In this document: one piece after another, positions 23,664 through 41,563 of the stretch
Position numbering within the stretch: the stretch's first letter is position 1
Layout: each line of letters starts with the position of its first letter
Assembly: GCA_963782615.1 (NCBI GenBank)
Contig: CAWAKM010000007.1
Coordinates: 1,432-65,431 of the forward strand
Origin: an uncultured Thermoleophilia bacterium
Lineage (GTDB): Bacteria; Actinomycetota; Thermoleophilia; Gaiellales; Gaiellaceae
Direction of reading: 5' to 3'
DNA length: 64,000 nucleotides
The notes under the pieces: model-generated
The model's input: the letters and a program-made list of their open reading frames with translations, nothing else
What the model was told of the DNA's origin: nothing
Database searches by the model: none
Translations under genes and position numbers: made by a program

Positions 23664-23701
23664 GGCATTGGACCGACCTACGCGGTCGGAGCACTGGTGG
23701 T

Positions 23702-24204: not shown

Positions 24205-24314
24205 TCAAGCCGTTTTTGGCCTGTTGAAGCCGTTTTTCGGCTACCAGATCGATGCTTAGCCTGCCTCCGGTTCGTCCGCTCAGATCCGCTGGAATCCGCT
24301 GGTTTCTGGCCCGC

Positions 24315-24338
24315 ACTGGACCGCAGACTGGACCGCAG
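24315..24338 (+). repeat. Tandem 12-mer ACTGGACCGCAG x2 (arm-type-site-like)
   Basis: Perfect tandem copies 24315-24326 and 24327-24338, with a degenerate CTGGCCCGC just before. Confidence 0.6.
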
Positions 24339-24491
24339 CGTAAAAAGACAGGAATCACTGCGGGCCGCTTGAGCAGTCCACCCCGAGGCCGCCGCGCCAG
24401 TGTCCGCGGAATGTCACCCGAGCGGACGCTCTGCCTAAAAGGCTTTCGAGTCGCTCGGCTAAACGAACCTGCCAGGCTGCGCATCTAAGTA

Positions 24492-24989
24492 GTGATGACG
24501 CCGCAGCACGAACTGGCTGAGACGGGCTCGATCGGCGACATCGAGACGATCTACCGCGAGCAATACTCGCGATACCTTCGCTTCGCCGTCGCCAACCTTG
24601 GCGACGTCGAGCGCGGCCGCGATGCAGTCCACGAAGCCTTCGTAAGCGCGATCAAGTCAGTCGGCGACTTTCGCGGCCAGGCACGCCTCGAATCGTGGCT
24701 GTGGCGGATTCTCTTGAACGTGTGCATTGCCGAGAAGAGACGTCGAGTCGTGCCGATCGAGGACGCGCGCCTTCAGGCCGACTTCGAAGACCCCGAATGG
24801 CCCGAGATCCGCGCCGCGATCGCCTCTCTTCCGGAGAGGCAGAGGACGGTTCTCTTTCTTCGTCACTACGCCGACCTCGACTACGAGCAGATCGGCGCCG
24901 TACTCGGCATCGCCCGGGGAACAGTGGCGGCAACCCTGAACACAGCCCACACAAGGCTACGGGCCGTACTTGGAGAGGTGAAGAGGTGA
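24492..24989 (+). CDS. ECF sigma factor
   Basis: DAVHEAF, WLWRILLN (region 2); LPERQRTVLFLRHYADLDYEQIGAVLGIARGTV (region 4). Confidence 0.9.
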   Translation: MMTPQHELAETGSIGDIETIYREQYSRYLRFAVANLGDVERGRDAVHEAFVSAIKSVGDFRGQARLESWLWRILLNVCIAEKRRRVVPIEDARLQADFEDPEWPEIRAAIASLPERQRTVLFLRHYADLDYEQIGAVLGIARGTVAATLNTAHTRLRAVLGEVKR

Positions 24990-26260: not shown

Positions 26261-26483
26261 TTGAGGGCGAAGCAACCCAGCGGGGTGGGCCAGGCAACAG
26301 CCGTGAGGGCGGGAAACCTCCTGTTGCCACTTGCTACACGTAGTCAACCGGTGACATCGGGCGCGGGGCCCTGCTCGCCTGCGCCAGACCGTATGGAGTG
26401 CCCGGCGCCTCTCTCGTAAGTTGGCGCGGGTTGCCGTCGGGATGGGCCCGGCGGTAGAGCCGCAATTACGGGAGGCGCCGGTT

Positions 26484-27555
26484 ATGAGCGAAGGTAGCTG
26501 GGTCGGGCTTGATGTGCACGCGCGGTCGGTGGTGGCGGGCGTGATCGATGTGGGGAGTGGTGAGGTGCGGTCGCTGCGGGTGCCGGCCGGGTCTGACGCC
26601 ACGGTGGCGTGGTTGAAGACGCTGTCGGCGCCGGTTCGGGTCGTGTATGAGGCGGGGCCGACTGGGTACGGGCTTGCGCGTGCGTGTGCCCGGGCGGGGA
26701 TCAGCTGTGTTGTCGCGGCTCCGTCGCGGATCCGGCCGGCGGCCGATCGGGTCAAGACCGACCGGCGGGACGCTGAGCGGCTAGCGAGGCTGCTTCGGTT
26801 GGGTGAGGTCACTCCGGTGCGGGTGCCGGGGCCGGAGGAGGAGGCCGCGCGTGATCTGGTCAGGGCGCGGGAGGATGCCCGTGGCGATCTGATGCGGGCT
26901 CGGCACCGGCTCTCGAAGCTGCTGCTTCGTCATGGCGCGGTGTACGACGCGACCGCGTGGACGCGGGCGCACGACGCGTGGCTTCGCCAGCAGCGGTTCC
27001 AGAGCGGCCCGCTCGCGATCGTGTTCGACGAGTGCTACGGCCGCATGGTCGACGCGAAGGCCAGGAGGGACGCGCTCGACGTGGCGATCTCCGAGCTCGC
27101 CGCGAGTGAGCCGTACGTTGGTGTCGTCGAGCGGCTCGTCTGTCTCCGCGGTGTCTCCACGCTGACGGCGTTCGCGTTGACCGTTGAGCTCGGCGACTGG
27201 AACCGGTTTCGCCCCGAGTCGCTCGGCCCGTTCCTCGGCCTCACCCCGAGCGAGAACTCAAGCGGGGAGCGGCGCCGTCAAGGCGCGATCACCAAGACCG
27301 GCAACGCGACATGCACGTCGGCTCCTGGTCGAGGCCGCCTGGCACCACCGCCGCCCGTCGCGCTTGAGCGTCACGCTGGAACGCAGACGCACAGGCAAGT
27401 CCCTCGCCGTACGAGCCCAAGCGGACCGCAGCGCCCGCCGGCTCCACGGACGCTGGCACGCGCTCGAGGCCCGAGGCAAGCCCCGCTCGATCGTCGTGGT
27501 CGCGGTCGCCCGCGAGCTCGCCGGTCACTGCTGGGCGCTCGCGACGATGGAGTAG
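26484..27555 (+). CDS. IS110-family DEDD recombinase/transposase, +1 frameshift near 27310
   Basis: GLDVH, YEAGPTG, KTDRRDA, GLTPSENSSG...ITKTGN; HARRLLVEAAW and VAVARELAG are in the next frame. Confidence 0.88.
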
Positions 27556-27604
27556 GTCGCACCAGCAACGGCTCGGCGAGGAGAGCGCACCGGCGCAACG
27601 ACGC

Positions 27605-27730
27605 GAGGAGCGACCCGAGAGAACACTGGGAGCAGCCCCATCGGCGGCCACGCTCGACGCCAGAGATCGGCACCGCTCCTCATCTCGCATACCCGGTCAT
27701 GCGGCACCAACCCGCGCATATGAGTCGCGA
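27605..27730 (+). ncRNA. Candidate bridge/seek RNA of the IS (two internal guide loops)
   Basis: Stem GAGGAGCG/CGCTCCTC encloses the target-matching guides; a TCGC/GCGA stem encloses the donor-matching guides (see findings); true RNA ends unknown. Confidence 0.7.
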
Positions 27731-27977
27731 CACAGACGTCGACGACAGCCGGTGCGCACTCCCCGCCGAGACCCGAACCCCGCAAAACAGCGAGGTGAAC
27801 AACCCCTGCCCAGTTGACAGGCCGCACTCCATATGAGAGTTCGGGAATGTCACCCGAGCGCCAAGTGAGCCTCCTTGTAACAGACTGTTACAAGGACTCC
27901 CCTCGCCGCTGGCCGAGATCGGGAACGCTCGTCTGCCCGAGCGTGCGGGAATGCCCCTGCGCGACCGGCTGCCGCCG

Positions 27978-28265
27978 CTAGCGCGTCAGCGACCCGACGT
28001 CGTCGAGGTAGTCCATCGAAACGGACGCCAGGTCGACACCGTCACGCACCATCGCCTCTTCCATCGCCGGATTCGTGGCGTCCGCCTCCGCCACCTCGCG
28101 GGAGTCGTACGTCTCTGCGAGAACAACGACGTTCGGATCGTCCTGCCCGCGCCAGATGCGCGCGGAACGTACGTGACTTCCCAGCGGCGAGGCGAAGAAC
28201 TGCTCATAGCTTTGCCGCCACGACTCATAATCGGCTACCCGGCAGCGAACAAGAATGGTCGTCAT
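27978..28265 (-). CDS. Small dimeric alpha-beta-barrel (cyclase/ABM-like) protein
   Basis: MTTILVRCRVADYESWR, IWRGQDDPNVVVL, AMEEAM..GV pattern; RBS GAGGAGG. Confidence 0.7.
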   Translation of the reverse strand: MTTILVRCRVADYESWRQSYEQFFASPLGSHVRSARIWRGQDDPNVVVLAETYDSREVAEADATNPAMEEAMVRDGVDLASVSMDYLDDVGSLTR

Positions 28266-28763
28266 GTCGCCTCCTCGACTAGGTTCGCGACACCATACGA
28301 CGGAGCGAATGGCGACACAAGCGCCGCCTGCGCGAGCGTACTTACACCCGATCGGCGAGGTTCGGTGATTCCTGATCGAGGAAGCCCGTCAGACGGAGGA
28401 CACGACGGAGGATCGCCGTATCCTGGATCTTCGGCGGTAGGCGGCTCTCGATCGCCGTGCGTTCAGCCCACTCCCGTACCTGTTGGCGCAAGTTCTCGTC
28501 TACAGCCGTGTCTCTTATGTTGACCTAGAGTGGCTTGTGTTACGCCGCGTCGCGTTTCCGTTGCTCGCGGTAGCTCCTGATCAGCGCGAGTGATCTCGGG
28601 CCGTAGCGGTAGGTGATGGAGCCGCCTGCTCCTGGCTGGCGTTCGATTGCGATGAAGCCATTGCGTTGGAGATGGGCAAGGTCGGATTCGCGGAACATGA
28701 TGTCGGCGTCCTGAGCGGCGCGTTAGGGGGCGTGGGGGCGTCGAAGCTTGACAAGTCTGAGCA

Positions 28764-28797
28764 TATCGATTATCAATATCCGTATTGTTTATCGATA
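28764..28797. promoter_or_regulatory. Imperfect 15-4-15 inverted repeat (putative XRE operator), with TTGACA at 28748
   Basis: TATCGATTATCAATA / TATTGTTTATCGATA, 13/15 complementary, AT-rich. Confidence 0.55.
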
Positions 28798-28811
28798 CGT
28801 TAGGAGTAGCC

Positions 28812-29411
28812 GTGGAAAATGGATCGTTCGACAGGTGGTTGCAGCGGTTGCGAGTGACCGCGACGATCGTCTACATCGTCGCGCTCTGCCTCGCCGTCGC
28901 AGTGCTGGTCATCGCCGTCATCCCCCACTCGCCAGTCACCACCACGTTGCCCGCCAAGGACGTGGCCGGGCTCGACCAAGTCAGCGGCTTGGCCTCCGGG
29001 ATCACCGTCGACCCTGCGGGCACGATCGCCGTCGAGATCGCCGAGCCGTCGACCGCGCAGCGGTTGCTGTACCTCGTCGTCGTGCTGCCCGGACTTGCCC
29101 TCGTCGCACTGATCGCCCGGCGGATGGCCAAGCTGCTTGGTGACGCGCTCGCGAGCGACCCGTTCACCGTCCAGACCGTCCGAGCGCTCACTGCCCTGGC
29201 CAAGGTCACCGCGATCGGCGGAATCGGCGTGTGGGCGATGAGCTACCTGGCTACCTGGGTGCTCTCGGCAACCGTCCTCGACACGGCCGGCGTCACTCGG
29301 CCACACGAGGCCCCGCTCGGCTGGCTCGCCGTTGCGCTCATCCTCGCCGCGTTCGGCCAACTCCTCGCCCGCGGAGTCGCCATGAGAGCTGAACTCGACA
29401 CGGTCATCTAG
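28812..29411 (+). CDS. DUF2975-like membrane protein
   Basis: Four TMs, DPFTVQTVRALTALA, GVAMRAELDTVI; AGGAG RBS before GTG at 28812. Confidence 0.8.
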   Translation: MENGSFDRWLQRLRVTATIVYIVALCLAVAVLVIAVIPHSPVTTTLPAKDVAGLDQVSGLASGITVDPAGTIAVEIAEPSTAQRLLYLVVVLPGLALVALIARRMAKLLGDALASDPFTVQTVRALTALAKVTAIGGIGVWAMSYLATWVLSATVLDTAGVTRPHEAPLGWLAVALILAAFGQLLARGVAMRAELDTVI

Positions 29412-29674
29412 TGACCGAACCTGCCGACCACGGCATCGAAGTGCACCTCGACAAGCTCCTCGCAGAGCGAGGCATCACCCTGGTCGAGCTCTCCACCCAG
29501 GTCGGCGTCACCGTCGCCAACCTCTCAATCCTCAAGAACGGTCACGCCCGCGCCGTCCGCTTCAGCACCCTCACTGCCATATGTGACGCCCTCGACTGCA
29601 ACCCCGGACAACTCCTCAGCCGGGCACGTCCTCCAGACGTTGACGCTGCGTCCTCAAGCTCGCGCCCGGCTTAG
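29411..29674 (+). CDS. XRE/Cro-C1 regulator (YozG-like), usual DUF2975 partner
   Basis: HLDKLLAERGITLVELS..VGVTVANLSILKNGHARAVRFSTL..IC..LDCNPG. Confidence 0.9.
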   Translation: MTEPADHGIEVHLDKLLAERGITLVELSTQVGVTVANLSILKNGHARAVRFSTLTAICDALDCNPGQLLSRARPPDVDAASSSSRPA

Positions 29675-29926
29675 CCCGCAAATGCTCGCGCAACCAGCCG
29701 AAGGAACTCGGCTTCGCCAGCGCGCTCTCGCCTGACATCGCTCGGAGGGCCAGCCGCGCTGAGGAGCGTTTCGAGGGACACGCCGCCATCATCCTCCACG
29801 ATCCACCTCTCGGTTGGCGCAAGCATTCCGGCGGAGCGCCCATGACGGGCTTCAGCCGTAGACACAGGCCGGCAGTTAAGGGAGGATCGCCGCAATGACT
29901 ATGACCTCACCGCCGCGAGTTCTCTT

Positions 29927-30784
29927 GTGAGGTCGGCGCTTCGTGGTTTCGCACTCGTCGCGATCGCTGCGGCCATCGTGCTCACGGCCGCGGTGGCAGC
30001 CGCGTCCGGGCGAAGCGTGTCCCAGATGACGCTTTCGGTCAGCCCTGCCAAGCCTGCATTAAGCTCGATAGCGACGGTGACGATCCGAGGCATCGCCGAC
30101 GAGACGGCCATGCCGGCGGTCGTGGCCGTCTCGGGCTCCGTGTGTCCGGCTCGGGTCCCGTCGCTTTCTAATGCATTCTGGTCAGAAGATTCCAGCCTCA
30201 CGCTCGGTGCATTCACGCGCAAGGTCAGGGTGTTCATCCAAACGAAGACCATGCGGCGGTTCTGTGCGTACCTCCAGCCGGCGGTGCAGGGGGTGAACGA
30301 CGGTGACCCCCCGGAGATCTCGCCCGGCGCACCGCTCGTTCGAGCCGAGGTCGCGCTTCCTCAGGCTGCCGCTGGTCCGCTCCGCGGCGTTCCGGTGTCC
30401 GGGGTCAGCGGGGGGAACCGGGACGGCCCCGGCCCGACGCTCGTGTTAGACCGCACCGGCCGCCGGATCGTGATGGTGCGAACGACCTGCGGCGGCAGCG
30501 CCCTGCACCCTCCATCTCTCGGCAAGGAGTTCATCGGCAAGCGGTTCAGCGCGCGGGTTTCTCTGCCGCTGACGAGAACCATCCGCTGGAGCGGGTTCGT
30601 CACCCCGGACAACTCGCGCAACTACGACGCTCCGGTGCCCGTCGCGTGGACGAAGCCCACACGGTTCACGTTGAACGTGAAGGTGATCGTGAAGGATGGC
30701 CTGGCGAGGGCCCTCGTCGGCACGGGCGCACTCGCGAGCCCCGGTCTGCCGTGCCCGAAGGTTCAACGCTACGTCTTCCCCTGA
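29927..30784 (+). CDS. Hypothetical secreted protein
   Basis: Signal peptide (AAA-SG); beta-rich composition with several Cys. Confidence 0.6.
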   Translation: MRSALRGFALVAIAAAIVLTAAVAAASGRSVSQMTLSVSPAKPALSSIATVTIRGIADETAMPAVVAVSGSVCPARVPSLSNAFWSEDSSLTLGAFTRKVRVFIQTKTMRRFCAYLQPAVQGVNDGDPPEISPGAPLVRAEVALPQAAAGPLRGVPVSGVSGGNRDGPGPTLVLDRTGRRIVMVRTTCGGSALHPPSLGKEFIGKRFSARVSLPLTRTIRWSGFVTPDNSRNYDAPVPVAWTKPTRFTLNVKVIVKDGLARALVGTGALASPGLPCPKVQRYVFP

Positions 30785-30979
30785 ACCGCTACGTCGTCGG
30801 CTCTGGACTAGTTTGCGCTAACTAAGTAGTTGGTTCGGCCAGAACCAGCCGCCCCAGCATCCTCTCGCGTGACCGCTGTCGGGGTGAGAGCGATCCTCAG
30901 CGGACTATCGCAAACACTGCCGCACATCGGCTCGCCATTGGTCGGAATCGACCGTCTCAAGCCGTTCTCGGCGGAATCA

Positions 30980-31060
30980 CAGCAGGTCTTCTAAACCTGT
31001 GCGGTGTGGTAACCCCACGCTCGGTCGGTTCGACTCCGGCGCCGCTCCGTCAAGCCGTTT
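30980..31060 (+). repeat. attR-like 3' copy of selC (loop CTTCTAA instead of CTTCAAA)
   Basis: Matches 24135-24215 except one base; lacks the 5' acceptor strand and D-arm. Confidence 0.9.
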
Positions 31061-31256
31061 CGGCGTCCCGAAAGGGCTTGCGACGGTTGCGGCCGTCGCG
31101 TCGATACAAGCCCTATCGCCGCCTGAGGCCGCTCAAGACCGCCTGGGGCCCGCGTGGACTTGCGAGCTGCGTGATCGAAACCGTGTGACCCCGTGGCGCG
31201 GATGTTCGTCGCACTCGCCTTTCGCCCATGGCCACGTCACAATCCGTGCGAGCGGC

Positions 31257-34067
31257 ATGGTGGAGACAGTCATCGGGCGGGACATGGAGCTTAGCTCGAT
31301 CGAGGGTTTCCTCGATCGAATCCGGGGCGGCCCAAGCGCGCTCGTGCTCTCGGGCGAGCCGGGCATCGGGAAGACGGCATTGTGGGAGGTTGGCGTCGAG
31401 GCAGCCCGGGAGCGTCACGACCGAGTGCTGACGTGCCACGGCGTCGAGGCCGAGGCGTCACTCGCGTTCGCCGGGCTCTCGGAGCTGCTCGCCCGAGTGC
31501 TCGACGAGGCCACACCGTCGCTCGCGCCACCACGGCGGCGGGCCCTCGAGGTCGCGCTGCTCCTCGTCGAGCCGAGCGGGCGCCCTCCTGACCACCACGC
31601 CATCGGGCTGGCCGTGCTCGACGTCCTGCACGCGCTGGCCGAGCACGGGACGGTTCTCATTGCGCTCGACGATGTGCAGTGGCTGGACGCGGCCTCCGCT
31701 GGCGTGCTTCAGATCGCCTTCCGCCGGCTGCGCGAGGAGCCGGTCGGGCTCCTGGCGACGCTGCGCCAGGCACCGGAGGTCGACGATCCGTTCGACCTCG
31801 ACCGTTCGTTCCCCGAGGAGCATCTCGAGCGGCTCTCGATCGGCCCGCTCACGTCCGGGGCTCTCCACCGGCTGCTCGCGGAGCGCCTCGGGCTCGAGCT
31901 GACCCGGCCGGAGCTGGCGCGCGTGCAGGAAGCGACGGCGGGAAACCCATTCTTCGCGCTCGAGCTCGGCCGCGAGCTCGTCCGCACCGGGTCGCGGCCG
32001 ACACCGGGCCAGCCGTTGCGCGTTCCCGACAGCCTCCGGGAGCTGCTCGGTGGCCGCCTCGCACGCCTGCCCGGAGAGACACTCGATGTCCTGTTGCAGG
32101 TCGCCGCGCTCGCACGGCCGACGGTCGAGGTGGTCGCGGCCGCGCACGGCGAGCGGGACCCCGTCCTCCGCGGGCTCGAGGCGGCGGTCGACGAGGGGGT
32201 CGTCGAGCTCGACGACACACGCATCCGCTTCACGCACCCGCTGTTGGCGTCGATCTGCTACGAGAAGGCGCCGGTATGGAAGCGCCGCGCCGTGCACCGG
32301 GCGCTCGCCGGAGCGGTCTCCGACATCGAGGAGCGCGCCCGCCACCTCGCACTCGCCGCAGACGGACCTGACGCAGCGGTCGCAGCGGAGCTCGACGCTG
32401 CGGCAGGCCGGGCGGCGATTCGCGGCGCTACCGGTGTCGCAGCCGAGCTCTGCGAGCTCGCGGCCGAGCTGACCCCGAGCAATCCGCCCCGGCAACGAGA
32501 ACGGCTCCTCCAGGCTGCCGCCTTCCACCGTCTCGCCGGCAACACAGAGCAGGCGGCAGCACTCCTCGAGCAGCTCCTGACGGAGGTCCCATCCGGTGTC
32601 GAACGAGCCGACATCCTCCTCGCGCTCGGCTGGACGTTCCTCACCAGGCTTCCGACGATGAAGGAACATTTCGACGACGCACTCCTCAATGCGACCGGCG
32701 ACGACGCCCGCTTGGCACGGATTCTGTCGCTGCGAAGCATGTTCCACCTGATGTCGCTCGACGTGCCGGCGGCCCTCGCGGACGCCAGAGCAGCGCTGGA
32801 GCGGGCCGAGCGGGTGGGCGACCCGGTCCTGATTGCCACTGCGATCGCGCGGGTCGGGCACGTGGAGTCGTGGGGTGCCGAGATAACACCCGGCCTGCTC
32901 GAGCGTGGTGTGCAGATCGAGCAGCAACTCACTGTGGAGCTCGACTTCATCGAGAGCCCGAGCATCCACCTCGGCAGGCAGCTGATGCGCCGCGGCGAGA
33001 TCGACCGGCCCCGTACGATCTTCGTGGAGCTGGAGGCGAAGGCGGTGGCCCGCGGGGACGAGGTGACACGGACCCTGATGCTCTGGTACCTGTCGCTGGT
33101 GGAGTGGTGCGCCGGGCGCTGGCAGCGCGCCCTCGAGCTCGTCCAGACCGCGCACGAGCTCGGTGAGCAGACACAGCTCGCAGGCAGCTACGGCCATGAC
33201 GCTCGCTTCGGCGGGCTGATTCGCGCAGATCTCGGTCTCGTCGCGGAGGCGCGTGCCTCTGCTGAGCGCGCGGTCGAGCATGCGCGGCTGAACGGGGACG
33301 AGTACTTCGTGATCCCGTCCCTCGGCGTGCTTGGGCGGCTCGAGCTCGCACTTGGCAACCTCGAAGCGGCGGCCCGCCATCTGCGCGACCTGCCCGAGCG
33401 TCTGCTTGCAGGGGGCATCAACGACCCCGGGCAACCCCTCTGGGGAGACGCGATCGAGACGCTCATCGCCGTGGGCGAGCTCGACCGTGCTCGTACCTAC
33501 CTCGAGCAGTTCAGCGTGCACGCCAAGAACGTCGGAAATCTGTACGCCGTGGCGGGAGCCGCGCGCTGTCGCGGGCTACTCGCAGCCGCGGAGGGCGACC
33601 TGGCCGGAGCGATCGCAGAGCTCGAAGGGGCGGTCGACGTACTGGCCGACGGCGGCTTTCCGGTCGAGCGCGGCCGCGCGCTGCTCTGCCTCGGGATGGT
33701 GCGAAGGCAGGCACAGCAGAAGCGCGCCGCCCGCGAGGCGCTCGAGCAGGCGCTCGTGGTCTTCGACGAGCTCGGTGCCCGTCTGTGGGCCGATAAGGCC
33801 CGCGCGGAGCTCAAGCGGATCGGCGGGCGGCGGCCCGCCCCCGACGGGCTGACCGACACGGAGGAGCGCATCTCGAGGATGGCGGCCGACGGCAGTTCCA
33901 ACAAAGAGATCGCCTCGGCGCTCTTCATGAGCGTGCGCACCGTCGAGGCTCACCTTACGAGCGTCTACCGCAAGCTCGACATCCGCTCCCGCAGCGGGCT
34001 CGCCAACCGGCTTGAACCGGTTGCGGCTGAGGCCGGCAAACCTGCGGTCGACGCGGGCGAAACCTAG
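31257..34067 (+). CDS. Large AAA-ATPase / TPR / LuxR-HTH regulator (LAL/MalT-like)
   Basis: VIGRDMEL, GEPGIGKT, IALDDVQWLD, GNPFFALEL, C-terminal LTDTEERI...SNKEIA..LFMSVRTVEAHL. Confidence 0.92.
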   Translation: MVETVIGRDMELSSIEGFLDRIRGGPSALVLSGEPGIGKTALWEVGVEAARERHDRVLTCHGVEAEASLAFAGLSELLARVLDEATPSLAPPRRRALEVALLLVEPSGRPPDHHAIGLAVLDVLHALAEHGTVLIALDDVQWLDAASAGVLQIAFRRLREEPVGLLATLRQAPEVDDPFDLDRSFPEEHLERLSIGPLTSGALHRLLAERLGLELTRPELARVQEATAGNPFFALELGRELVRTGSRPTPGQPLRVPDSLRELLGGRLARLPGETLDVLLQVAALARPTVEVVAAAHGERDPVLRGLEAAVDEGVVELDDTRIRFTHPLLASICYEKAPVWKRRAVHRALAGAVSDIEERARHLALAADGPDAAVAAELDAAAGRAAIRGATGVAAELCELAAELTPSNPPRQRERLLQAAAFHRLAGNTEQAAALLEQLLTEVPSGVERADILLALGWTFLTRLPTMKEHFDDALLNATGDDARLARILSLRSMFHLMSLDVPAALADARAALERAERVGDPVLIATAIARVGHVESWGAEITPGLLERGVQIEQQLTVELDFIESPSIHLGRQLMRRGEIDRPRTIFVELEAKAVARGDEVTRTLMLWYLSLVEWCAGRWQRALELVQTAHELGEQTQLAGSYGHDARFGGLIRADLGLVAEARASAERAVEHARLNGDEYFVIPSLGVLGRLELALGNLEAAARHLRDLPERLLAGGINDPGQPLWGDAIETLIAVGELDRARTYLEQFSVHAKNVGNLYAVAGAARCRGLLAAAEGDLAGAIAELEGAVDVLADGGFPVERGRALLCLGMVRRQAQQKRAAREALEQALVVFDELGARLWADKARAELKRIGGRRPAPDGLTDTEERISRMAADGSSNKEIASALFMSVRTVEAHLTSVYRKLDIRSRSGLANRLEPVAAEAGKPAVDAGET

Positions 34068-34114
34068 AGCTTCCACGGTTACGCTCAGCGGCGTCCCGCC
34101 GTAGCCTCAGCTCC

Positions 34115-34336
34115 ATGGTCTTCGTCGTCGAGCGGTACCTCCCGGGAGCCTCCTACAGCGAGCTTCGTCGCTCCCTCGAGCGGCTGCGCCGACAAGGCGG
34201 ACTGCGGGTGCCCTACCTCGACTCGACCACGTCACTGGCGACGAGGCCTGCCACCGACGGCTCCAAGCGCCCGCCAAGACGGCTGTCGCCGAAGCGAAGG
34301 GCGGGCCTGCCGTTCAACTGGGTCGTTCCCGCGTGA
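34115..34336 (+). pseudogene. Degenerate DUF4242-like small protein
   Basis: FVVERYLPG start and RAGLPF..VVPA end; the central GDEAC motif is in another frame (two compensating shifts). Confidence 0.5.
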
Positions 34337-34361
34337 TTGTCACGCCGAAAGGAGAGGTTCC

Positions 34362-34796
34362 ATGAGCGCTTCCACTACTGCCCCCGCGACCATCCAACTC
34401 CGGCGAGGTCACCTGTTCGTGCTGATCGCCGCCGTTACCGCGCTGACGGCCGCCGCCACGCTGGCAGTGTCAACACTCGCCTTCGACTCGAACGCGATCC
34501 GAACGGGCGAGGCGGCGCAGGCACCCGTGCAGACCCTGTTGCTGCCGTCGAGCCGGTACCTCGCCCGCATCGTCGTCAGGCCGGCGGAGGCACCCGTGCA
34601 GACGCTGTTGCTGCCGTCGAGCCGGTACCTCGCCCGCATCGTCGTCAGGCCGGCGGAGGCACCCGTGCAGACGCTGTTGCTGCCGTCGAGCCGGTACCTC
34701 GCCCGCATCGTCGTCAGGCCGGCGGAGGCACCCGTGCAGACCCTGTTGCTGCCGTCGAGCCGGTACCTCGCCCGCATCGTCGTCAGGCCGGCGTGA
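34362..34796 (+). CDS. Signal/TM-leader protein with four tandem 23-aa repeats
   Basis: RBS GAAAGGAGAGG; hydrophobic N-terminus; (APVQTLLLPSSRYLARIVVRPAE)x4. Confidence 0.7.
   Translation: MSASTTAPATIQLRRGHLFVLIAAVTALTAAATLAVSTLAFDSNAIRTGEAAQAPVQTLLLPSSRYLARIVVRPAEAPVQTLLLPSSRYLARIVVRPAEAPVQTLLLPSSRYLARIVVRPAEAPVQTLLLPSSRYLARIVVRPA
34521..34792 (+). repeat. Tandem 69-bp repeat x4
   Basis: Units start at 34521, 34590, 34659, 34728 (last truncated by the stop); one synonymous C/G difference. Confidence 0.95.
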
Positions 34797-34811
34797 GAGC
34801 GGGTCGATCGG

Positions 34812-34847
34812 GCCTGGAGAGGGGAGCAGGCCCTCCCCTCTCCAGGC
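34812..34847 (+). terminator. 14-bp perfect hairpin after the repeat gene
   Basis: GCCTGGAGAGGGGA / TCCCCTCTCCAGGC; no U-tract. Confidence 0.6.
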
Positions 34848-34866
34848 GCCGGCGGCGAACAATGAG

Positions 34867-34895
34867 TTGACGCCGACCGTGCCAAATCTCACAAT
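34867..34895 (+). promoter_or_regulatory. Putative sigma-70 promoter for the PEP-enzyme pair
   Basis: TTGACG-N17-CACAAT, then AGGAGGAGG RBS before ATG 34918. Confidence 0.5.
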
Positions 34896-34917
34896 CACCC
34901 AGGAGGAGGCGAGAGCG

Positions 34918-36771
34918 ATGACAATCGCTGATGAGCAGGCCAGCGCGGCACGATCAGGCTTCCCGAGCCCGTTCGAGGTGCCAATCCCTCCGGAGTGCGA
35001 GGGGTGGGAGGAGCTGTACACCCCCTTTAGCGTGTTCAGCGAGGACCGTCGCGCGTTTGACGAGAGCCGGTGTTGGTTCCAGCTTTCCTCGCACTACGCG
35101 GAGCCTTTCTGTCCGTTCGACGCGATCTTCTTCGAGTACGCAACGGCCGCCCTGAGCCAGTCGAGCACTCGTATCTTCGTCGTGCCGCCGTCGCTCGGTT
35201 TCGAGCTGCGGGTCCTCAACGGGTTCGTCTATCTCAGCCCCAACTCGGTCACCGACGAATTGGCGCTTGCGCACCGCGCTGAGCTGTTCGCCGCCCGCGG
35301 CGGTTTCTACTACGAGCACTGGGAGGAGCTGCTGGTCGAGTGGCAGCGTCGGGTCTTGGAGGCGATCGAGGAGCTCGGGGCGCTCGAGGTGCCGGCGCTT
35401 CCCGACCTGGAGGACGAGGCGATGGTGACCGAGGGCAGGGGCCTCGGCTCGAGCCACGCCCTCCTCCATGCCTATGACCGTCTCCTCGAAGGGTTCGACC
35501 GCATCTGCCACTACCACATGCAGTTCCAGATCCTCGCCCATGGCGCCTACATGGTCTTCTACGGCTTCTGCTGGGAGGCTTTTCCCGGGATCTCCGATCA
35601 GGCCGTCGCGAAGATGGTCTCCGGGGTCGACACCGTGATCTTGCGCCCCGACGACGAGTTGCGCCGCCTCGCGCGCCGTGCTGTCGAGCTGAGGGTGGCC
35701 GAGCGCGTGATCGGCGTGGGTAACGAGGACGAGCTGCGCGCGGCCCTCGGGACGGATGCGGCGGGGAGGCTTTGGCTGGCCGACTTCGACGAGACGAAGG
35801 ACCCCTGGTTCCACTTCTCGTATGGGAACGGGTGCTACCACCATCACCGCTCCTGGAGCGACGACACGCGGTTCCCGATCACGACGATCGCCTCGTACGT
35901 CGGGCGGCTCGAAGCGGGCGAGGACATCGCGAGGCCACAGGCCGCGATCGCCGCCGAGCGCGAACGGATCACCGAGGAGTACCGGGCGCTGCTCCCGAGC
36001 GAGCTGCAGCAGGCCTTCGACGAGCACCTCACGCTCTGTCGTACGGTCTTCCCGCACGTCGAGAGCCACGGCTTCTACGTCGACCACTGGTATCACACGC
36101 TGTTCTGGAACAAGGTGCGCGAGTTCGGCACGCTGCTCGAGCGGCACGGGTTCCTGGCCGACGCGGAGGACGTCTTCTTCCTCCAGCACGGCGAGGTGCG
36201 GACGGCGCTCGAGGAGCTCCGGGTCAACTGGAGCAGCGGGGGAGCCGGGCAGCCGCGGGGCCCGCGCTATTGGCCGCGGATCGTGGAGCGGCGCACGGCG
36301 ATCTACGAGGCGATGCGCGAGTGGACACCCCCACCCGCCCTCGGCACGGTCCCGGAGGCGATCACTGATCCGGTCACGATCATGCTGTTCGGGATCTCGA
36401 CAGAGCACCTCCAGAAGTGGCTTGGCTCGGACGATGCGGACGAGCACGTGCTGTCCGGGTTCGCCGGCTCTCCCGGTGTGGCCGAGGGTACCGCGCGGGT
36501 CGTCCTCACCCCTGACCGGCTCGGGGAGCTCGAGAAGGGGGAGATCCTCGTCGCGCCGTTCACGACGCCGAGCTGGGCGCCGGTGTTCGGCACGATCGCC
36601 GGTGCGGTCCTCGACGCGGGCGGGATCATGTCGCACGCGGCGATCGTGGCGCGCGAGTATGGCCTACCGGCGGTGATCGGGACCGGATCCGCGACGAAAC
36701 GGATCACGACGGGCGACCGCGTCCGCGTCGACGGCGGCGTGGGCGTCGTCACCATCCTCGAGAACACGTGA
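34918..36771 (+). CDS. PEP-utilising enzyme: substrate-binding region plus phospho-His swivel domain
   Basis: GFAGSPGVAEG, GEILVAPFTTPSW, GGIMSHAAIVAREYGLPAVIG, VRVDG..G.V. Confidence 0.88.
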   Translation: MTIADEQASAARSGFPSPFEVPIPPECEGWEELYTPFSVFSEDRRAFDESRCWFQLSSHYAEPFCPFDAIFFEYATAALSQSSTRIFVVPPSLGFELRVLNGFVYLSPNSVTDELALAHRAELFAARGGFYYEHWEELLVEWQRRVLEAIEELGALEVPALPDLEDEAMVTEGRGLGSSHALLHAYDRLLEGFDRICHYHMQFQILAHGAYMVFYGFCWEAFPGISDQAVAKMVSGVDTVILRPDDELRRLARRAVELRVAERVIGVGNEDELRAALGTDAAGRLWLADFDETKDPWFHFSYGNGCYHHHRSWSDDTRFPITTIASYVGRLEAGEDIARPQAAIAAERERITEEYRALLPSELQQAFDEHLTLCRTVFPHVESHGFYVDHWYHTLFWNKVREFGTLLERHGFLADAEDVFFLQHGEVRTALEELRVNWSSGGAGQPRGPRYWPRIVERRTAIYEAMREWTPPPALGTVPEAITDPVTIMLFGISTEHLQKWLGSDDADEHVLSGFAGSPGVAEGTARVVLTPDRLGELEKGEILVAPFTTPSWAPVFGTIAGAVLDAGGIMSHAAIVAREYGLPAVIGTGSATKRITTGDRVRVDGGVGVVTILENT

Positions 36772-37808
36772 GCTACGTCTTCCCTCTCGATGGCCGCGAG
36801 CCGCACCTGGCGGAGATCGTCGGCGGCAAGGCGGTCGGTCTGGGCTCGCTCCTGCGCGAGGGGCTGAGGGTGCCACCGGGGTTCGCCCTCGGCACGCACG
36901 CTTACCGCGAGATCGTAGGCGCGACCGGCCTGGACGCGGAGATCAGAGCCTTGTTGCAGGAGGCAGAGTCGCTCGAGGCTCGGGCAGAAGCCTCGGCACG
37001 GATCGGCCGGCTGTTCGAGGAACGCGAGCTGGCAGGCGCGCTGCGAGACGAGCTGGGGAGCGCCTACTCCGGGCTTGGTGACGATCTCCCCGTCGCCGTG
37101 CGATCGAGCGGGATCTCCGAGGACGCGGCCGAGGCATCGTTCGCGGGCGAGCACGAGACGTTCCTCTGGGTGGTCGGTGCCGACGCGGTCGCGCGCGCAG
37201 TGCTGAGCTGCTGGGCCAGCCTGTTCACCCCGCAGGCGCTTGCCTACTTCGGCCGCGTCGGGCTGCGCGCAGACGAGACCGCGATGGGCGTTGTGGTGCA
37301 GGCGATGGTCGACGCTGAGGCGGCGGGCGTCATGATCACCATCGACCCGGTCACGGGCGACCGGTCGCAGATCGCGATCGAAGGGTCGTTCGGCCTGGGT
37401 CAGGCGGTCGTCGCCGGAGAGGTGACGCCTGACCGCTACTACGTCGACAAGGTGACGCTCGAGATCCGCTCGCGGGTGGTCTCGGCAAAGCACTTCGCGT
37501 ACCGGTTCGATCCCGACTCGGGCGGAGTGGCCGCGTTGGAGGTGCCGCCCGAAGAGCAGGAGCTGCCCTGCCTGTCGGACGACGAGGTCGTCGCTGTCGC
37601 CGCGCTCGGGAAGCGCGTGGAACGGGCACTCGGCGCCCCGCAAGACATCGAGTGGGCAATCGGGCCCGGCTGCTCGCAATCTCGGGAGCTGTTCCTTCTC
37701 CAGGCCCGGCCCGAGACCGTCTGGAGTCACAGGCCAAGGGCAGTGGCTGCCACGGGCGGATCCGCGACGCTAGGGCGGATCGAGCACGGGATGATGAGGC
37801 GGGCCTGA
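36768..37808 (+). CDS. PEP synthase/PPDK N-terminal ATP-grasp subunit
   Basis: VGGKAVGLG, VPPGF, VAVRSS..SED...SFAGEH, VVVQAMV, VVAGEVTPD, PQDIEWA; overlaps the upstream stop. Confidence 0.9.
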   Translation: MSYVFPLDGREPHLAEIVGGKAVGLGSLLREGLRVPPGFALGTHAYREIVGATGLDAEIRALLQEAESLEARAEASARIGRLFEERELAGALRDELGSAYSGLGDDLPVAVRSSGISEDAAEASFAGEHETFLWVVGADAVARAVLSCWASLFTPQALAYFGRVGLRADETAMGVVVQAMVDAEAAGVMITIDPVTGDRSQIAIEGSFGLGQAVVAGEVTPDRYYVDKVTLEIRSRVVSAKHFAYRFDPDSGGVAALEVPPEEQELPCLSDDEVVAVAALGKRVERALGAPQDIEWAIGPGCSQSRELFLLQARPETVWSHRPRAVAATGGSATLGRIEHGMMRRA

Positions 37809-37826
37809 CTGAGATCCACGGCCAGT

Positions 37827-38700
37827 GTGGGGTGTCACCGGGGTGTGCACCGCACGCGCAAACTAGGCGCTCGTGACATGCCTGACCCCAGGCAACATGC
37901 CGTGGAGGGCGTGCTCCTGGGATTCAGATGGGCGGTGACGGACTCACTGCTCGATCACATCGGCGTACGGGCGGCGCTCGATCCGCTCGCGCAGCCGGTA
38001 GGCGGCCGCCACCTCGAGCTCGAGCTCGAGCGTCACACCAAGATGCCCACCGACACCTGCGCCGCGCGCAGAACTTCCGGTCGATCCTCGCCGATCTCGA
38101 TCACATCGCCGGTGCCGGTCGCGATCCGCACGCCGCGGAGCGTCGCCGAGAAGCTCGGGAACGCGATGCCGTCGCAGAAGGTGACGATCCGTCGCTACTC
38201 GGCGTCATCATCAGCCACGGCCACCCCGATCACTACGGGCTTGTGGCGGCAAGCTCGCCCGTGGTTCCTCGCTACATCGGCGAGGCGGCACACCGGATTC
38301 TCGCCGCGGCCGCCTTCTTCACACCGACAGGCGTTGACCTGCGCCCGAACGGCTTCCTGCACGACCGACAGCCGTTCACGCTCGGGCCGTTCCAGGTCAC
38401 GCCGTACCTGTCGGATCACAGCGCCTTCGACGCCTACGGACTCCTTGCCGAGGCCGGCGATCGCAGCCTCTACTACTCCCCCGACCTGCGCGGCCACGGA
38501 CGAAAACGCAGCCTGTTCGAGCGTCTGCTGACCGAGCCGCCTAATGCGCATACGCTGCTCCTGGAAGGCACCCGCATCGCCGAACAGCCCGACGACACGC
38601 GCGGGCTGGCGAGCGAGACCGACGTCGAGAACGCGGCCGCAAGCTCTTTCGGGGCACAGACGGGATCGCTCTCGCTCTCTACTCGCCCCAGAACATCGAC
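37827..38700 (+). pseudogene. Broken MBL-fold (RNase J/beta-CASP-like) hydrolase
   Basis: GVIISHGHPDHYGL, DHSAFDAY, YSPDLRGHGRK, LLLEGTRI; N-terminus scrambled and C-terminus cut short before attR. Confidence 0.65.
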
Positions 38701-38809
38701 CGGCTCGTCTCCCGCAGGGAACTTGACTGTGGCGAGGAACGTGGCGGGAGGAGTCTCGGCGCCAGTCGAACCGCTTTCTCAAGCCGTTTGCGCCCTGGCC
38801 GCGGCGAGG

Positions 38810-38872
38810 CTTCAAAACCTGTGCGGTGTGGTAACCCCACGCTCGGTCGGTTCGACTCCGGCGCCGCTCCGT
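38810..38872 (+). repeat. Second attR-like 3' copy of selC
   Basis: 63 bp identical to 24143-24205, starting exactly at the anticodon loop. Confidence 0.9.
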
Positions 38873-39075
38873 GAAGAGGAGGTGAAGGTCGTCAGCTTGA
38901 CGAGCTTCCTGCCGCGCTCGACGGCAACCGCGGCGATGCCGGACTCAGGGGAGACGTAGAGACGCTTCATGCGGTGTCGAAGGCTAGGCGTCGGGGCTAG
39001 TCGCCCGACCTCGAAGTTGCTACTGAACTTCATCGTTTTCCCCCGGCGCGGGGCCTCACGGCTTAGTCTCAGAGC

Positions 39076-39987
39076 ATGCAGGCGAGCGACATGAGTGCCC
39101 TTCTGACCAAGGGTTTGTCGAAGCACTACGGCAACGTCGCGGCGCTCGACGAGCTCGATCTCAGGATCGAGCCGGGCGAGGTCTACGGCTACCTGGGGCC
39201 GAACGGCGCCGGCAAGACGACGACGATCCGCCTGCTGCTCGGACTGCATCGCCCGACGAGCGGTCGAGCAGAGCTGTTCGGCGTCGACGCCTGGGGCGAT
39301 CCGGTCGAGGCACACCGGCGCGTTGCCTATGTCGCCGGGGAGCCGTTTCTTTGGCCGCAGCTGACGAGCACCGAGACGTTTGCACTGCTTGCCCGGCTGC
39401 ATGGATCGACGGATAACGCTTACCGCGAGCTGCTTGTGGAGCGGTTCCAGCTGGACGTCGATCGCAAGATCCGCGCCCTCTCGAAGGGGAACCGCCAGAA
39501 GGTGCAGCTCGTCGCTGCGTTCGCGACGCGAGCCGACCTGTTGATCCTGGACGAGCCGACGAGCGGGCTCGACCCGTTGATGGAGATGGCTTTCCGCGAG
39601 ACCGTGCTCGAGGCGAAAGAGCGCGGGCAAACGGTCTTCCTCTCGTCGCACATCCTCAGCGAGGTCGAAGCGGTGTGCGATCGCGTCGGCATTCTCCGCA
39701 ACGGCCGTCTCGTCGACGAGGGGACTCTCGCCGAGCTCCGACACCTGAGCGCGCACACCGTAGACGTCACATTCTCTGGTGCCGTGCCTGCTCTCGGCCC
39801 GCTCGACGGTGTGCACGTGGTCGACACAGCAGGCAGCGTGCTGCGGCTGGAGGTCAGTGGCGCTATACAGCCGCTCCTCATGGAGCTCGCCGACCAGCAG
39901 GTGGTGTCTCTGACGAGTCACGAGCCGTCGCTCGAGGAGATCTTCCTTCACCACTACGAGGACCCGGGCGGTCGTGAAGGCAGCTAG
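39076..39987 (+). CDS. ABC-2 exporter ATP-binding subunit
   Basis: GPNGAGKT, LSKGNRQK, LILDEPTSGLD, SSHILSE; start could be 39091. Confidence 0.93.
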   Translation: MQASDMSALLTKGLSKHYGNVAALDELDLRIEPGEVYGYLGPNGAGKTTTIRLLLGLHRPTSGRAELFGVDAWGDPVEAHRRVAYVAGEPFLWPQLTSTETFALLARLHGSTDNAYRELLVERFQLDVDRKIRALSKGNRQKVQLVAAFATRADLLILDEPTSGLDPLMEMAFRETVLEAKERGQTVFLSSHILSEVEAVCDRVGILRNGRLVDEGTLAELRHLSAHTVDVTFSGAVPALGPLDGVHVVDTAGSVLRLEVSGAIQPLLMELADQQVVSLTSHEPSLEEIFLHHYEDPGGREGS

Positions 39988-41563
39988 CGCGCTCGCCCGG
40001 AGGACGCTGGCAAACGGACGGATCAACACCGGCTCGTTCGCCCTGCTCTTTCTCTTCATCGCCTTTGTCAACCCGGTCGGCTATCGGCGCGCCTACCCGA
40101 CGGCGGCCGACCGGCTGGCCTTCGCGCAGAGCTTCGGAACGAACAAGATCGTGCAGCTGTTCTATGGCATTCCGCACGACCTCCTAAGCGTTGGTGGGTA
40201 TACGGCCTGGCGCGTGGGCGGAACGGCCTCGATTTTCGCCGCTGCCTGGGGGCTGATGGCGGCTGTCCGCGCCCTACGCGCCGAGGAAGATGCCGGCCGC
40301 CAGGAGCTCGTGCTCGCAGGCGTGATCAGTCGCCGATACGCGTACCTGGCCGCACTTGGCGCGATCGCCGGTGGCGCGATCATCCTCTGGCTGGCTCTGC
40401 TGGTAGGCCTCGCTGCAGCCCGCCTGTCCGTAGCTGGCTCAGCCTTCCTGGCGCTCACCGTGATCTCGCCGATCCCGGTGTTCGCCGGTGTGGGCGCGCT
40501 CACGAGCCAGATCGCGTCGACGAAGCGCCTAGCCCTCGCGCTCGCCAGCGCGGCGCTCGGGCTTGCGTTCCTGCTTCGCGTGATCGCCGACACGTCGACG
40601 AGCTACGGCTGGATGCGCTGGGTCACGCCGCTCGGATGGGCCGAGGAGCTGCAGGCTTTCGATAACCCTCAACCGCTCGTTCTCGTCCTTCCTGTGCTCA
40701 CTGCCGTTGTGCTGCTCGTTACCGCGGGGTTGATCAACGCGGGGCGCGATGTCGGCCGCGGGCTCCTGGTGGGCGACGACACGCGCACGCCGCGCATGCG
40801 GCTCCTCTCCTCCCCCACCGCGTTTGCGTTCCGCAGCGAGCTCACGACGCTCGGGATCTGGATCGCGGGTACCGGTGTGTTCGCCGTCGTCGTCGGCGTC
40901 CTCTCGACGAGCTTCACGACCGAGAACCTCCCGGCCAATATCCGCGAGGAGCTGGAAAAGCTCGGTGGTGCATCGCTCGTCACCCCGGCCGGCGCGCTCG
41001 GCTTCTACTTCCTCCTGTTCGTGTTCGCGATCAGTCTCTTCGCGTGCTCGCAGATGGCTGCCGCGCGCCGGGAGGAGTCGGACCAGCAGCTCGAGACGCT
41101 GCTCGCGCTCTCGGTCGGGCGAACGCGCTGGCTCGGCGGGCGAATCGCTCTCGGTATCGCGGGCATCGGCGCCCTTGCTCTCGTGGCTGGCTTGCTGTCG
41201 TGGGCCGGGGCTGTCTCGCAGGGCGCCGATGTCTCGCTCGGGGAGATGCTCGAGGCCGGCCTTAACTGCCTGCCGACGTCGCTCCTCTTCCTCGCCCTCG
41301 CCTCGCTAGCATACGGGCTGATGCCGCGTGCGAGCACCGGGCTCGCGTACGGGCTCGTGAGCGTTGCGTTCGTCTGGCAGCTGTTCGGGTCACTGATCGG
41401 GGCGCCGCAGTGGATCGTCGACCTTAGCCCCTTCCAACACATCGGGCTCGTTCCGGCGCAGCCGTTCCACGTCACCGCGGCGATCGTGATGGTCGCGCTC
41501 GCCGCCGTTGGTGCGCTTGCGAGCCTGTGGGCCTTCAGGCGGCGCGACCTGACGCCCGCCTAA
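39974..41563 (+). CDS. ABC-2 exporter permease (duplicated-domain, antibiotic/peptide-exporter type)
   Basis: About 12 TMs, RAEEDAGRQELVLA, EESDQQLETLLA, WVTPLGW, LSPFQH, FRRRDL. Confidence 0.88.
   Translation: MKAASALARRTLANGRINTGSFALLFLFIAFVNPVGYRRAYPTAADRLAFAQSFGTNKIVQLFYGIPHDLLSVGGYTAWRVGGTASIFAAAWGLMAAVRALRAEEDAGRQELVLAGVISRRYAYLAALGAIAGGAIILWLALLVGLAAARLSVAGSAFLALTVISPIPVFAGVGALTSQIASTKRLALALASAALGLAFLLRVIADTSTSYGWMRWVTPLGWAEELQAFDNPQPLVLVLPVLTAVVLLVTAGLINAGRDVGRGLLVGDDTRTPRMRLLSSPTAFAFRSELTTLGIWIAGTGVFAVVVGVLSTSFTTENLPANIREELEKLGGASLVTPAGALGFYFLLFVFAISLFACSQMAAARREESDQQLETLLALSVGRTRWLGGRIALGIAGIGALALVAGLLSWAGAVSQGADVSLGEMLEAGLNCLPTSLLFLALASLAYGLMPRASTGLAYGLVSVAFVWQLFGSLIGAPQWIVDLSPFQHIGLVPAQPFHVTAAIVMVALAAVGALASLWAFRRRDLTPA

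Follow-up and report, generated by a model that had tools for sequence, protein, structure and literature searches.

Proteins of the SCO4226-like family (PF14026) are described as nickel-responsive in the consulted parts of PMC4186839, and HpeHI, CreHI and PpsAB as two-component, ATP-dependent small-molecule dikinases that act on phenolic compounds in those of PMC12167813. Work on multicore precursors and signal peptides, to the extent that it is represented in the abstracts and excerpts consulted, concerns mainly eukaryotes (fungi, plants and sponges) and graspetides, a class of RiPPs (peptides made ribosomally and modified post-translationally), and also staphylococci and bacteriocins; our literature search returned no paper joining phosphoenolpyruvate (PEP)-utilizing enzymes, precursor peptides and RiPPs. 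Here we analyse a small gene (34362..34796, + strand) in a 64,000-nucleotide stretch of DNA (the window) from an uncultured Thermoleophilia bacterium of the Gaiellales (assembly GCA_963782615.1, contig CAWAKM010000007.1). It encodes a protein of 144 amino acids, consisting of a 53-residue N-terminal part followed by four 23-residue units, and had been read in an earlier note, made from the sequence alone, as either a RiPP-like multicore precursor or a recent repeat expansion. The expansion is borne out by our analysis and the RiPP-like precursor is not. The product of the gene is probably a small protein with one membrane pass, perhaps freed by cleavage of a signal, which is a derived member of an undescribed Gaiellales family and belongs to a module containing a LAL regulator and a SCO4226-like protein.

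The small gene is real. Its ATG at 34362 stands 4 nt downstream of the Shine-Dalgarno sequence GAAAGGAGAGG (34347..34357, + strand), a very strong ribosome-binding site (RBS), and the sequence at this position in the relatives is GAAAGGAGA or GAAGGGAGA (10 loci compared). At 0.90, the G+C content at third codon positions (GC3) of this frame exceeds that of the two alternative frames (0.67 and 0.56) and is close to that of the neighbouring genes (0.85–0.89), which identifies the frame as the coding one. The four 69-bp units, which encode APVQTLLLPSSRYLARIVVRPAE (34521..34796, + strand), lie at 34521–34589, 34590–34658, 34659–34727 and 34728–34796. Apart from the terminal TGA, they differ only at base 15, where the codons are ACC, ACG, ACG and ACC, all of them encoding threonine. 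The TGA takes the place of the final GAG, and unit 4 therefore consists of 22 amino acids and a stop. Tandem Repeats Finder reports a period of 69, 4.1 copies, a 98% match and a score of 541 at 34513–34793. The RBS, the four units with their C-G-G-C pattern at a synonymous site (recovered by slicing the open reading frame, ORF) and the stop at the end of the last unit are all as the earlier note described them, as is a perfect 14-bp hairpin after the stop, which is considered below.

A phmmer search of 1.84 billion representative proteins gave 18 matches to the window protein. An N-terminus of the form M.VS..IPATVQIRRG.L.GL, followed by a hydrophobic run of ~23 residues and then AFD(T/S)G, is common to 11 small proteins (P0001, P0002, P0006, P0007, P0010, P0011, P0013, P0016–P0018), whose tails differ; residues M1, P8, T10, R15, T33 and D42 are invariant (alignments A1 and A3). 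A family profile finds matches in 22 of 401 sampled genomes of the order Gaiellales, distributed over 12 of 66 genera, and it matches the window locus with an E-value of 3.6e-30. The relatives are uncultured Gaiellaceae/Thermoleophilia represented by metagenome-assembled genomes (MAGs), and their loci were retrieved with a narrower alignment (A2). Two further paralogs, both of the typical kind, are present in the genome of the window itself (L044 and L047). Neither the window protein nor any of the scanned family members is matched by a Pfam or NCBIfam model, a search of the ESM Atlas with the typical member L018 gave no cluster above a score of 0.81, and a fold search of 48,161 chains (VIA-align wide) with the typical-member model gave no match at Z >= 5, the best rows overlaying the long helix only. 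Judged by its sequence, the window protein belongs, as a divergent form, to an undescribed family of Gaiellales small proteins, and its gene keeps the family layout of RBS, stop position and hairpin.

The tails of the family are modular and differ by lineage. Most contain a conserved C-terminal part of ~60 residues, ...SLTPAQLAAG..GY.LP...VLASMSP.TRRYT..M.LTF.QLAAGAAG.P, with 17 invariant columns in 20 sequences. Some tails have one or two extra copies of ATFTMTRKQIEGLSTMA, others have two to five copies of LGLSP..R.YV.GI.SLTP.QQAAAFG, and still others are built of SIG.YLFG / SLTPAQ.R..R.YWL modules.

The remaining matches were set aside. The eukaryotic repeat proteins P0003–P0005, P0008, P0009, P0012 and P0014, together with P0015, were taken as chance or compositional matches to the repeat. 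One of them, P0008 (305 residues), looks like a secreted eukaryotic precursor with about 12 tandem LLPSKRYLD(R/P)IGS units, which resemble the LLPSSRYLARIVV unit of the window; we regard this as coincidence. The matches in genome G007 (L002 and L006) were likewise rejected as belonging to an unrelated array of nine 69-bp units with stops in the matched frame. That array (L002 1395–2020, contig G007:C5; 9.1 tandem copies, 94% match) has the same period as ours and no likeness in sequence by eye. It is flanked by a polysaccharide-deacetylase-like ORF on one side and a sigma/anti-sigma-like pair on the other, and has a small GC hairpin in every unit and frames that are all either open or ridden with stops.

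The hydrophobic part of the N-terminus is a predicted transmembrane segment at approximately residues 18–40 (34413..34481, + strand), with RR before it and the family motif AFD after it. The mean Kyte-Doolittle value of residues 18–36 is 2.4, again with RR before and D after. In eight loci (L014, L015, L018, L022, L024, L026, L027 and L034) the SCO4226-like ORF upstream continues in frame, with no stop, into the small ORF, so that the product consists of a cytosolic domain, an anchor and a tail, in this order. The same fusion is seen in the database protein P0013. In other loci the SCO4226-like gene and the small gene overlap by ATGA. The ancestral arrangement of the window was also of this kind: in a third frame, the sequence ...VIVTPKGEVP ends on a TGA, which shares bases with the small gene's ATG. 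Because the hydrophobic segment stands behind a fused cytosolic domain in eight loci, what the earlier note called a leader seems rather to anchor the protein in the membrane, with its tail on the outside; the segment is hydrophobic, as stated there, and of the transmembrane type rather than a leader. The N-terminus is thus likely to be inside and the tail outside, a topology predicted from sequence. AlphaFold2 predicts a typical member (20-sequence alignment) to consist of a helix at residues 15–42, a disordered linker at 43–70, and a small helical domain with pLDDT of 72–84. For the window protein it drew the repeats as short β strands, with low confidence, and this was not used as evidence.

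We note that this type of fusion (a cytosolic ferredoxin-like domain, an anchor and a repeat tail) is absent from the portion of the SCO4226 literature that was consulted. Many of the related MAG loci have frameshifts in otherwise conserved genes (L003/L009 1501–2017; L011–L013, L016 and L020). The small gene of L003 is split over two frames, and such MAG frameshifts are probably sequencing indels, so that a fusion or pseudogene called from one of these loci by itself is to be treated with caution.

The N-terminus also has features that may be those of a Sec-type signal peptide or of a signal anchor (RR, the hydrophobic stretch of ~23 residues, and T-L-A|F-D), all of which are conserved. These would suit an exported pro-peptide, in which the tail is cut after Sec export into four identical peptides of ~23 residues with an extracellular action, serving for example as a signal for the TPR-containing LAL regulator, much as in Phr-type pro-peptides or eukaryotic multi-copy hormone precursors. 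The conserved A-x-A-F-D after the signal-like N-terminus, the position of the gene directly behind a TPR-bearing regulator, the strong divergence of the tails between lineages, the identity of the cassettes, and a strong RBS and 3′ hairpin appropriate to a highly expressed small product are all in keeping with this. However, the hydrophobic stretch is long for a cleaved signal, its length favouring an anchor, and it is internal in the eight fused loci; typical tails are conserved across genera and fold as a small helical domain; no processing motif occurs between the units; and the genomic island in which the gene lies contains neither a protease nor a peptide importer. We consider a pro-peptide of this kind improbable.

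Upstream of the small gene are the two genes with which the family is normally associated. The first encodes a LAL-type regulator (30999..34067, + strand), composed of an AAA_16 ATPase domain, TPR and a LuxR/GerE helix-turn-helix domain (Pfam AAA_16 1.3e-18, TPR_12 2.6e-11, GerE 5.5e-14). The first ~60 nt of its listed ORF overlap a tRNA-Sec fragment; since the tblastn alignments of homologs begin at residue 87, translation probably begins at the ATG near 31257. The second is a SCO4226-like (PF14026) pseudogene (34115..34364, + strand, with an ORF at 34115–34336), which has several frame-breaking indels by comparison with L019, L003 and L014, as translation in three frames and alignment of the DNA show. 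The RBS of the small gene lies in what was once the 3′ end of the pseudogene (..VTPKGEVP). The ORF at 34115–34336 has no Pfam match and no intact domain, while intact homologs match PF14026 with E-values of 8.2e-11 (L003:1232–1504) and 2e-12. The pseudogene region was confirmed from 34190 to 34378 by exact short-read contigs. The SCO4226-like proteins of these cassettes are highly conserved, with a mean column identity of 74% and an invariant C-x-C. In L019, the SCO4226-like gene 5′ of the small gene is almost wholly deleted.

We then counted neighbours over 36 family loci, which are kin and not independent samples. Duplicate entries were merged (L009 with L003, L021 with L020, L023 with L010, and L025 with the window), both copies in L011 were counted, and L040–L042 were dropped as weak matches to unrelated larger proteins. 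A LAL gene, a SCO4226-like gene or both stand directly 5′ of the small gene in 24 of the 36. As a separate observation, the pair of LAL regulator and SCO4226-like gene is tandemly duplicated in most relatives (L009–L016 and L020), and in L011 the whole unit of regulator, SCO4226-like gene, small gene and HpeH-like gene occurs twice, one copy being fragmented.

The two genes downstream, which the earlier note took for a PEP-dependent kinase pair, are a pair of enzyme components of a different kind. The first (34918..36771, + strand) is an HpeH/CreH/PpsA-like dikinase component with a substrate-binding domain and a His swivel domain (GGIMSH), as identified by NCBIfam, the Pfam PEP-utilizers models and the PDB. 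Its listed ORF starts at TTG 34867 (634 aa), and the likelier start is ATG 34918 (617 aa). It matches NCBIfam PRK08296.1-5 with an E-value of 5.1e-223 (741.8 bits against a cut-off of 578 bits), and its C-terminal swivel domain matches the rifampin phosphotransferase structure 5FBS (5.9e-24). The second (36768..37808, + strand; 346 aa) is an HpeI/CreI/PpsB-like ATP-grasp component (Pfam PPDK_N 1.3e-93), for which the best PDB match is 9GOJ (E 3.4e-73, residues 17–334). The relevant sections of PMC12167813 give 9GOJ as HpeI, report components of 71 and 41 kDa, and place a methionine two residues before the catalytic histidine. Because HpeI is the best match and the GGIMSH motif fits the described dikinases, we take the pair not to be PEP-dependent: by sequence it is an ATP-dependent small-molecule dikinase of the HpeHI/CreHI/PpsAB type. 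Both neighbours of the small gene named in the earlier note, the LuxR-type regulator and the enzyme pair, are present.

An HpeH-like homolog lies directly 3′ of the small gene in 17 of the 36 family loci. Among the 12 loci with 6-kb flanks, only the window and L019 have its ATP-grasp partner next to it; in L014 (8341–9933) and L018 (2885–4474) the gene that follows the HpeH-like gene instead encodes an enzyme dependent on thiamine pyrophosphate (TPP_enzyme N, M and C domains). In L019, the small gene is separated from the dikinase by a second LAL gene and a SCO4226-like gene. The genome of the window contains three HpeH-like genes, two of them with no small gene: L048 is a bare dikinase pair, and L049 has the order LAL, SCO4226-like, HpeH-like, HpeI-like. 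It also contains three small genes, of which two (L044 and L047) have no dikinase. The check proposed earlier, namely whether homologs are linked to the enzyme pair, has therefore a mixed outcome: the HpeH-like gene is frequent downstream, while each gene also occurs alone, even within this genome. Taken together, these counts and the unlinked copies point to the LAL/SCO4226-like module as the common denominator, with the small gene and the dikinase as separable cargo.

It could still be proposed that the small protein is a RiPP-like substrate, whose repeats are cores or whose unit tyrosine is modified, for instance O-phosphorylated, by the adjacent dikinase. The side chain of tyrosine is a p-substituted phenol like the known dikinase substrates, the characterised relatives of the enzyme phosphorylate phenolic hydroxyl groups according to the consulted sections of PMC12167813, the HpeH-like gene is a common downstream neighbour, and in every tail module viewed by eye a basic residue is followed by an aromatic one (RY, RRY, RQY or G[FY]YLFG). 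In formal terms, a 53-residue N-terminal part followed by four cassettes also has the layout of a leader with cores; the likeness is superficial. Against it, the characterised dikinases, in the same sections of PMC12167813, act on small molecules; by prediction the tail is outside the membrane, and the enzymes lack an export signal; the genes are kept apart by a hairpin and a distinct promoter-like site; and the unlinked copies and the rarity of the ATP-grasp partner suggest that the enzyme is not an obligate partner. Pfam and NCBIfam scans of picked ORFs from 24695 to 45394, including all six genes of the island, found only the LAL regulator, the dikinase pair and an MBL-fold (metallo-β-lactamase) protein within the island, and there no RiPP recognition element, YcaO, radical-SAM enzyme, Lan-type enzyme, protease or exporter. 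The absence of a protease from the locus, which the earlier note had itself raised as an objection, is thus confirmed for the island, as is its remark that the ABC exporter lies outside: a DrrA-type ABC ATPase (39076–39987) and a weak ABC-2-like permease (39974–41563) follow beyond the island boundary. Nor is the N-terminal part a soluble recognition leader, given its hydrophobicity, the helix in the typical model and its internal position in the fused loci. A RiPP-like substrate is the reading to which we give the least credence of all, and we regard it as extremely improbable.

The intergenic region between the small gene and the dikinase contains a GC-rich hairpin (34812..34847, + strand), whose 5′ arm is rich in purines and which lacks a U tract. 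Its perfect 14-bp stem (34813–34826 / 34833–34846) encloses a loop of 6 nt and reaches 15 bp with the flanking G-C pair, and the 70 nt after the stop have a folding energy of -46.3 kcal/mol. No T-run is present 3′ of the window hairpin. A strong GC-rich hairpin occurs within ~25 nt of the stop in all 28 family loci that were folded, regardless of which gene is downstream; most have a 5′ arm of the purine-rich GGGGAGAGG type, and the outer pairs vary. An Rfam scan of 23500–39500 found tRNA-Sec and its fragment only, with no match for the hairpin. Most likely, the hairpin ends or stabilises the transcript of the small gene. A promoter-like site, TTGACG-17-CACAAT (34867..34895, + strand), stands ahead of the dikinase genes, in agreement with the earlier note; one such site was found, compared with a mean of 0.0 in 50 shuffles. 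The dikinase genes would accordingly appear to have a transcript start of their own. By eye only, a hexamer of the TTGCA(C/A) type is seen in the downstream DNA of 6 of 11 relatives (L011, L012, L013, L015, L018 and L003).

The closest relative of the window protein is P0001 (locus L019), which is 84% identical to it; the LAL regulators of the two loci are 93% identical. P0001 has two units, which differ from each other at 11 of 66 bases, and all four units of the window are nearest to the second of these (4 differences). Because this close relative has two diverged units, the four near-identical units of the window are the result of a recent expansion, as the earlier note had proposed as its second option. 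The ACG variant is carried by the two inner units, which implies at least two steps: homogenisation or duplication, followed by duplication of the G unit. Among 5.8 billion protein clusters searched, only the window protein and P0001 are of this type. Both lack the usual C-terminal domain of the family. A hidden Markov model (HMM) of the typical tails, built from the tails only, has no match in the window tail and matches the P0001 tail with an E-value of just 1.4. The idea that the 23-residue unit derives from the typical C-terminal domain (RRYT..VM) was rejected on the ground that this HMM misses the window tail. Instead, the unit resembles a membrane-proximal module, [IL]P.S[GR]YLD.[IV], which occurs once or twice in P0002 and P0016. 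In phmmer searches with tails only, the P0001 tail matches P0002 with 15.3 bits and P0016 with 11.2 bits, where the best of 320 shuffled tails reaches 6.0; when the window tail is used instead, the difference is small (10.1 versus 8.5 bits for shuffled tails). Between the window and L019 there are 15 synonymous and 19 nonsynonymous changes, a ratio of nonsynonymous to synonymous substitution rates (dN/dS) of ~0.5, which would mean a weak or relaxed constraint.

These observations raise the question of whether the gene is a decaying remnant, functionless or nearly so, in which the repeat expanded by neutral slippage under relaxed constraint on a degenerate island. The SCO4226-like partner is a pseudogene, the conserved C-terminal domain is missing, dN/dS is ~0.5, two typical paralogs are present elsewhere in the genome (L044 and L047), proteins of this type number only two, and the island is bounded by tRNA-Sec fragments, all of which would be expected of a remnant. 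On the other hand, the frame of 144 codons is intact and all indels are multiples of 69, GC3 equals that of the real genes nearby, the RBS, start, stop position and hairpin have been kept in both the window and L019, and a dN/dS below 1 hints at some constraint. We judge this explanation rather unlikely, while giving it real weight, and continue to favour a membrane protein of the LAL/SCO4226-like module.

The number of units was checked against contigs assembled from 4 short-read runs of one study, using exact matches to the window only. One contig (34369–34565) runs out of the leader and into unit 1, stopping 30 nt past the C site. Another (34536–34634) contains one unit-to-unit junction with the G variant, at a depth of 6.3 compared with 3–4 in the unique flanks, which fits two G-type junctions. 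Further exact contigs cover 34190–34378, in the SCO4226-like pseudogene region, and 34816–34966. No contig in these runs crosses the whole array, and 34652–34792 has no cover. For this reason, four copies are consistent with the reads and have no independent confirmation from them. It follows that the array might be genuine and its number of four an artefact of assembly, a concern sharpened by the uncovered stretch and by the indel errors in which related MAGs are rich (fragmented tblastn matches). Nevertheless, the order C-G-G-C requires at least 3–4 units, the depth at the junction with the G variant is roughly double that of the unique flanks, as two G junctions predict, and an identical 144-residue protein is on record from 2 contigs, which are possibly of the same source. 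An artefactual copy number is very improbable.

The island itself is delimited by copies of tRNA-Sec. The 3′ ~65 nt of this gene are present three times, within 24110–24209, 30955–31054 and 38777–38876. The copy at 24110–24209 is the intact gene (Rfam tRNA-Sec, 64.5 bits), and the middle copy (30955..31054, + strand) is a repeated 3′ part that scores 28.3 bits with the same model; ARAGORN labels this fragment "tRNA-Arg(tct)", where Rfam gives a weak tRNA-Sec. The three copies bound two stacked islands. The second contains the regulator, the pseudogene, the small gene, the dikinase pair and, as its last gene, the MBL-fold hydrolase-like ORF (37928..38959, + strand; Pfam Lactamase_B_2 1.3e-07), the 3′ end of which enters the tRNA-Sec repeat. 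The first contains a PD40 beta-propeller protein, an IS110-family transposase (26421–27836) and a DUF2975 protein. In the cassette of another genome (L010), a full tRNA-Sec gene (6739–6831) directly follows the HpeH-like gene on the opposite strand. The cassette may travel with islands that target tRNA-Sec.

The arrangement that we propose is as follows. The small gene normally stands behind a LAL (STAND-TPR-LuxR) regulator and a SCO4226-like gene, being coupled to the latter by ATGA or fused to it, and the small protein would form the membrane-tethered end of the regulatory module. In the lineage of the window, the SCO4226-like partner has decayed, the usual helical C-terminal domain has been lost, and the membrane-proximal 23-residue module has been amplified from two diverged to four near-identical copies by slippage or unequal recombination. 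The downstream enzymes are a two-component ATP-dependent dikinase distinct from this module, probably with a promoter of their own and with a small phenolic compound as predicted substrate. Several points weigh against this proposal. The suggested regulatory role is based on gene order and fusion only, and 12 of the 36 loci have neither a LAL nor a SCO4226-like gene adjoining. Single calls of fusion or frameshift could be sequencing errors, since frameshifts are plain to see in many of the relatives, which are MAGs; L014 and L018, which carry other assembly names, show the fusion too. AlphaFold2 models the window protein poorly (mean pLDDT 50.9) and without the N-terminal helix, and the typical-tail HMM fails to find the window tail and scarcely registers that of P0001. 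Finally, the window copy may be non-functional, having lost its partner and its C-terminal domain and showing a dN/dS of ~0.5, calculated on few sites.

A more far-reaching version would make the SCO4226-like domain, the anchor and the variable tail a transmembrane adaptor, which passes an outside signal to the STAND/LAL-TPR regulators, with the tail of the window protein possibly shed as four 23-residue pheromone-like peptides; we think this distinctly unlikely. In a bolder variant, which like the pheromone-like output has no positive support, the conserved tyrosine of the modules would be O-phosphorylated by the adjacent phenol-type dikinase. Failure of the RiPP lead spares a campaign of co-expression and mass spectrometry aimed at the wrong enzymes, and gene pairs annotated as "PEP-utilising" in such islands should be corrected to HpeHI-type small-molecule dikinases. 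A family of small membrane proteins so far without a name, present in uncultured Gaiellales of soil and tied to the SCO4226-like domain, would offer a first contextual clue to the role of that domain. The array is in addition a clean natural case of a tandem repeat that has grown in frame, very recently, from two diverged to four near-identical units.

Compared with known systems, the gene resembles multicore RiPP precursors such as those of cyanobactins and microviridins/graspetides in being a short ORF with an N-terminal region and tandem cassettes, a strong RBS and a hairpin. It differs in having at its N-terminus a predicted transmembrane anchor, which in eight relatives follows a fused cytosolic domain, and no cytosolic leader; it has no maturation enzyme, protease or exporter, and the neighbouring enzyme does not appear to be co-conserved; and most members of the family have a folded, conserved tail in place of cores. 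With the Phr/RRNPP-type pro-peptides it shares a small ORF 3′ of a TPR regulator, a signal-like N-terminus and a C-terminal part that varies by lineage. Here, however, the regulator is a STAND/LAL ATPase and not an RRNPP protein, the hydrophobic stretch has the length of an anchor, and the tails are 60–150 residues long and partly folded.

Like HpeHI, CreHI and PpsAB, the dikinase pair has two components (~68 and 38 kDa in the window), and its GGIMSH carries Met at -2 and Ser at -1, as CreH and PpsA do in the sections of PMC12167813 on which this comparison draws. It has a leucine where the T/SxxGGxxxH motif given in those sections carries threonine or serine, it is controlled by, or lies beside, a LAL and SCO4226-like module, and in most relatives of the window cassette the ATP-grasp gene is not adjacent. 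As for the SCO4226-like family, homologs of the gene upstream in the window match PF14026; by comparison with the members described in the consulted parts of PMC4186839, the domain is here coupled or fused to a membrane anchor and a repeat tail, and in the window it survives as a pseudogene.

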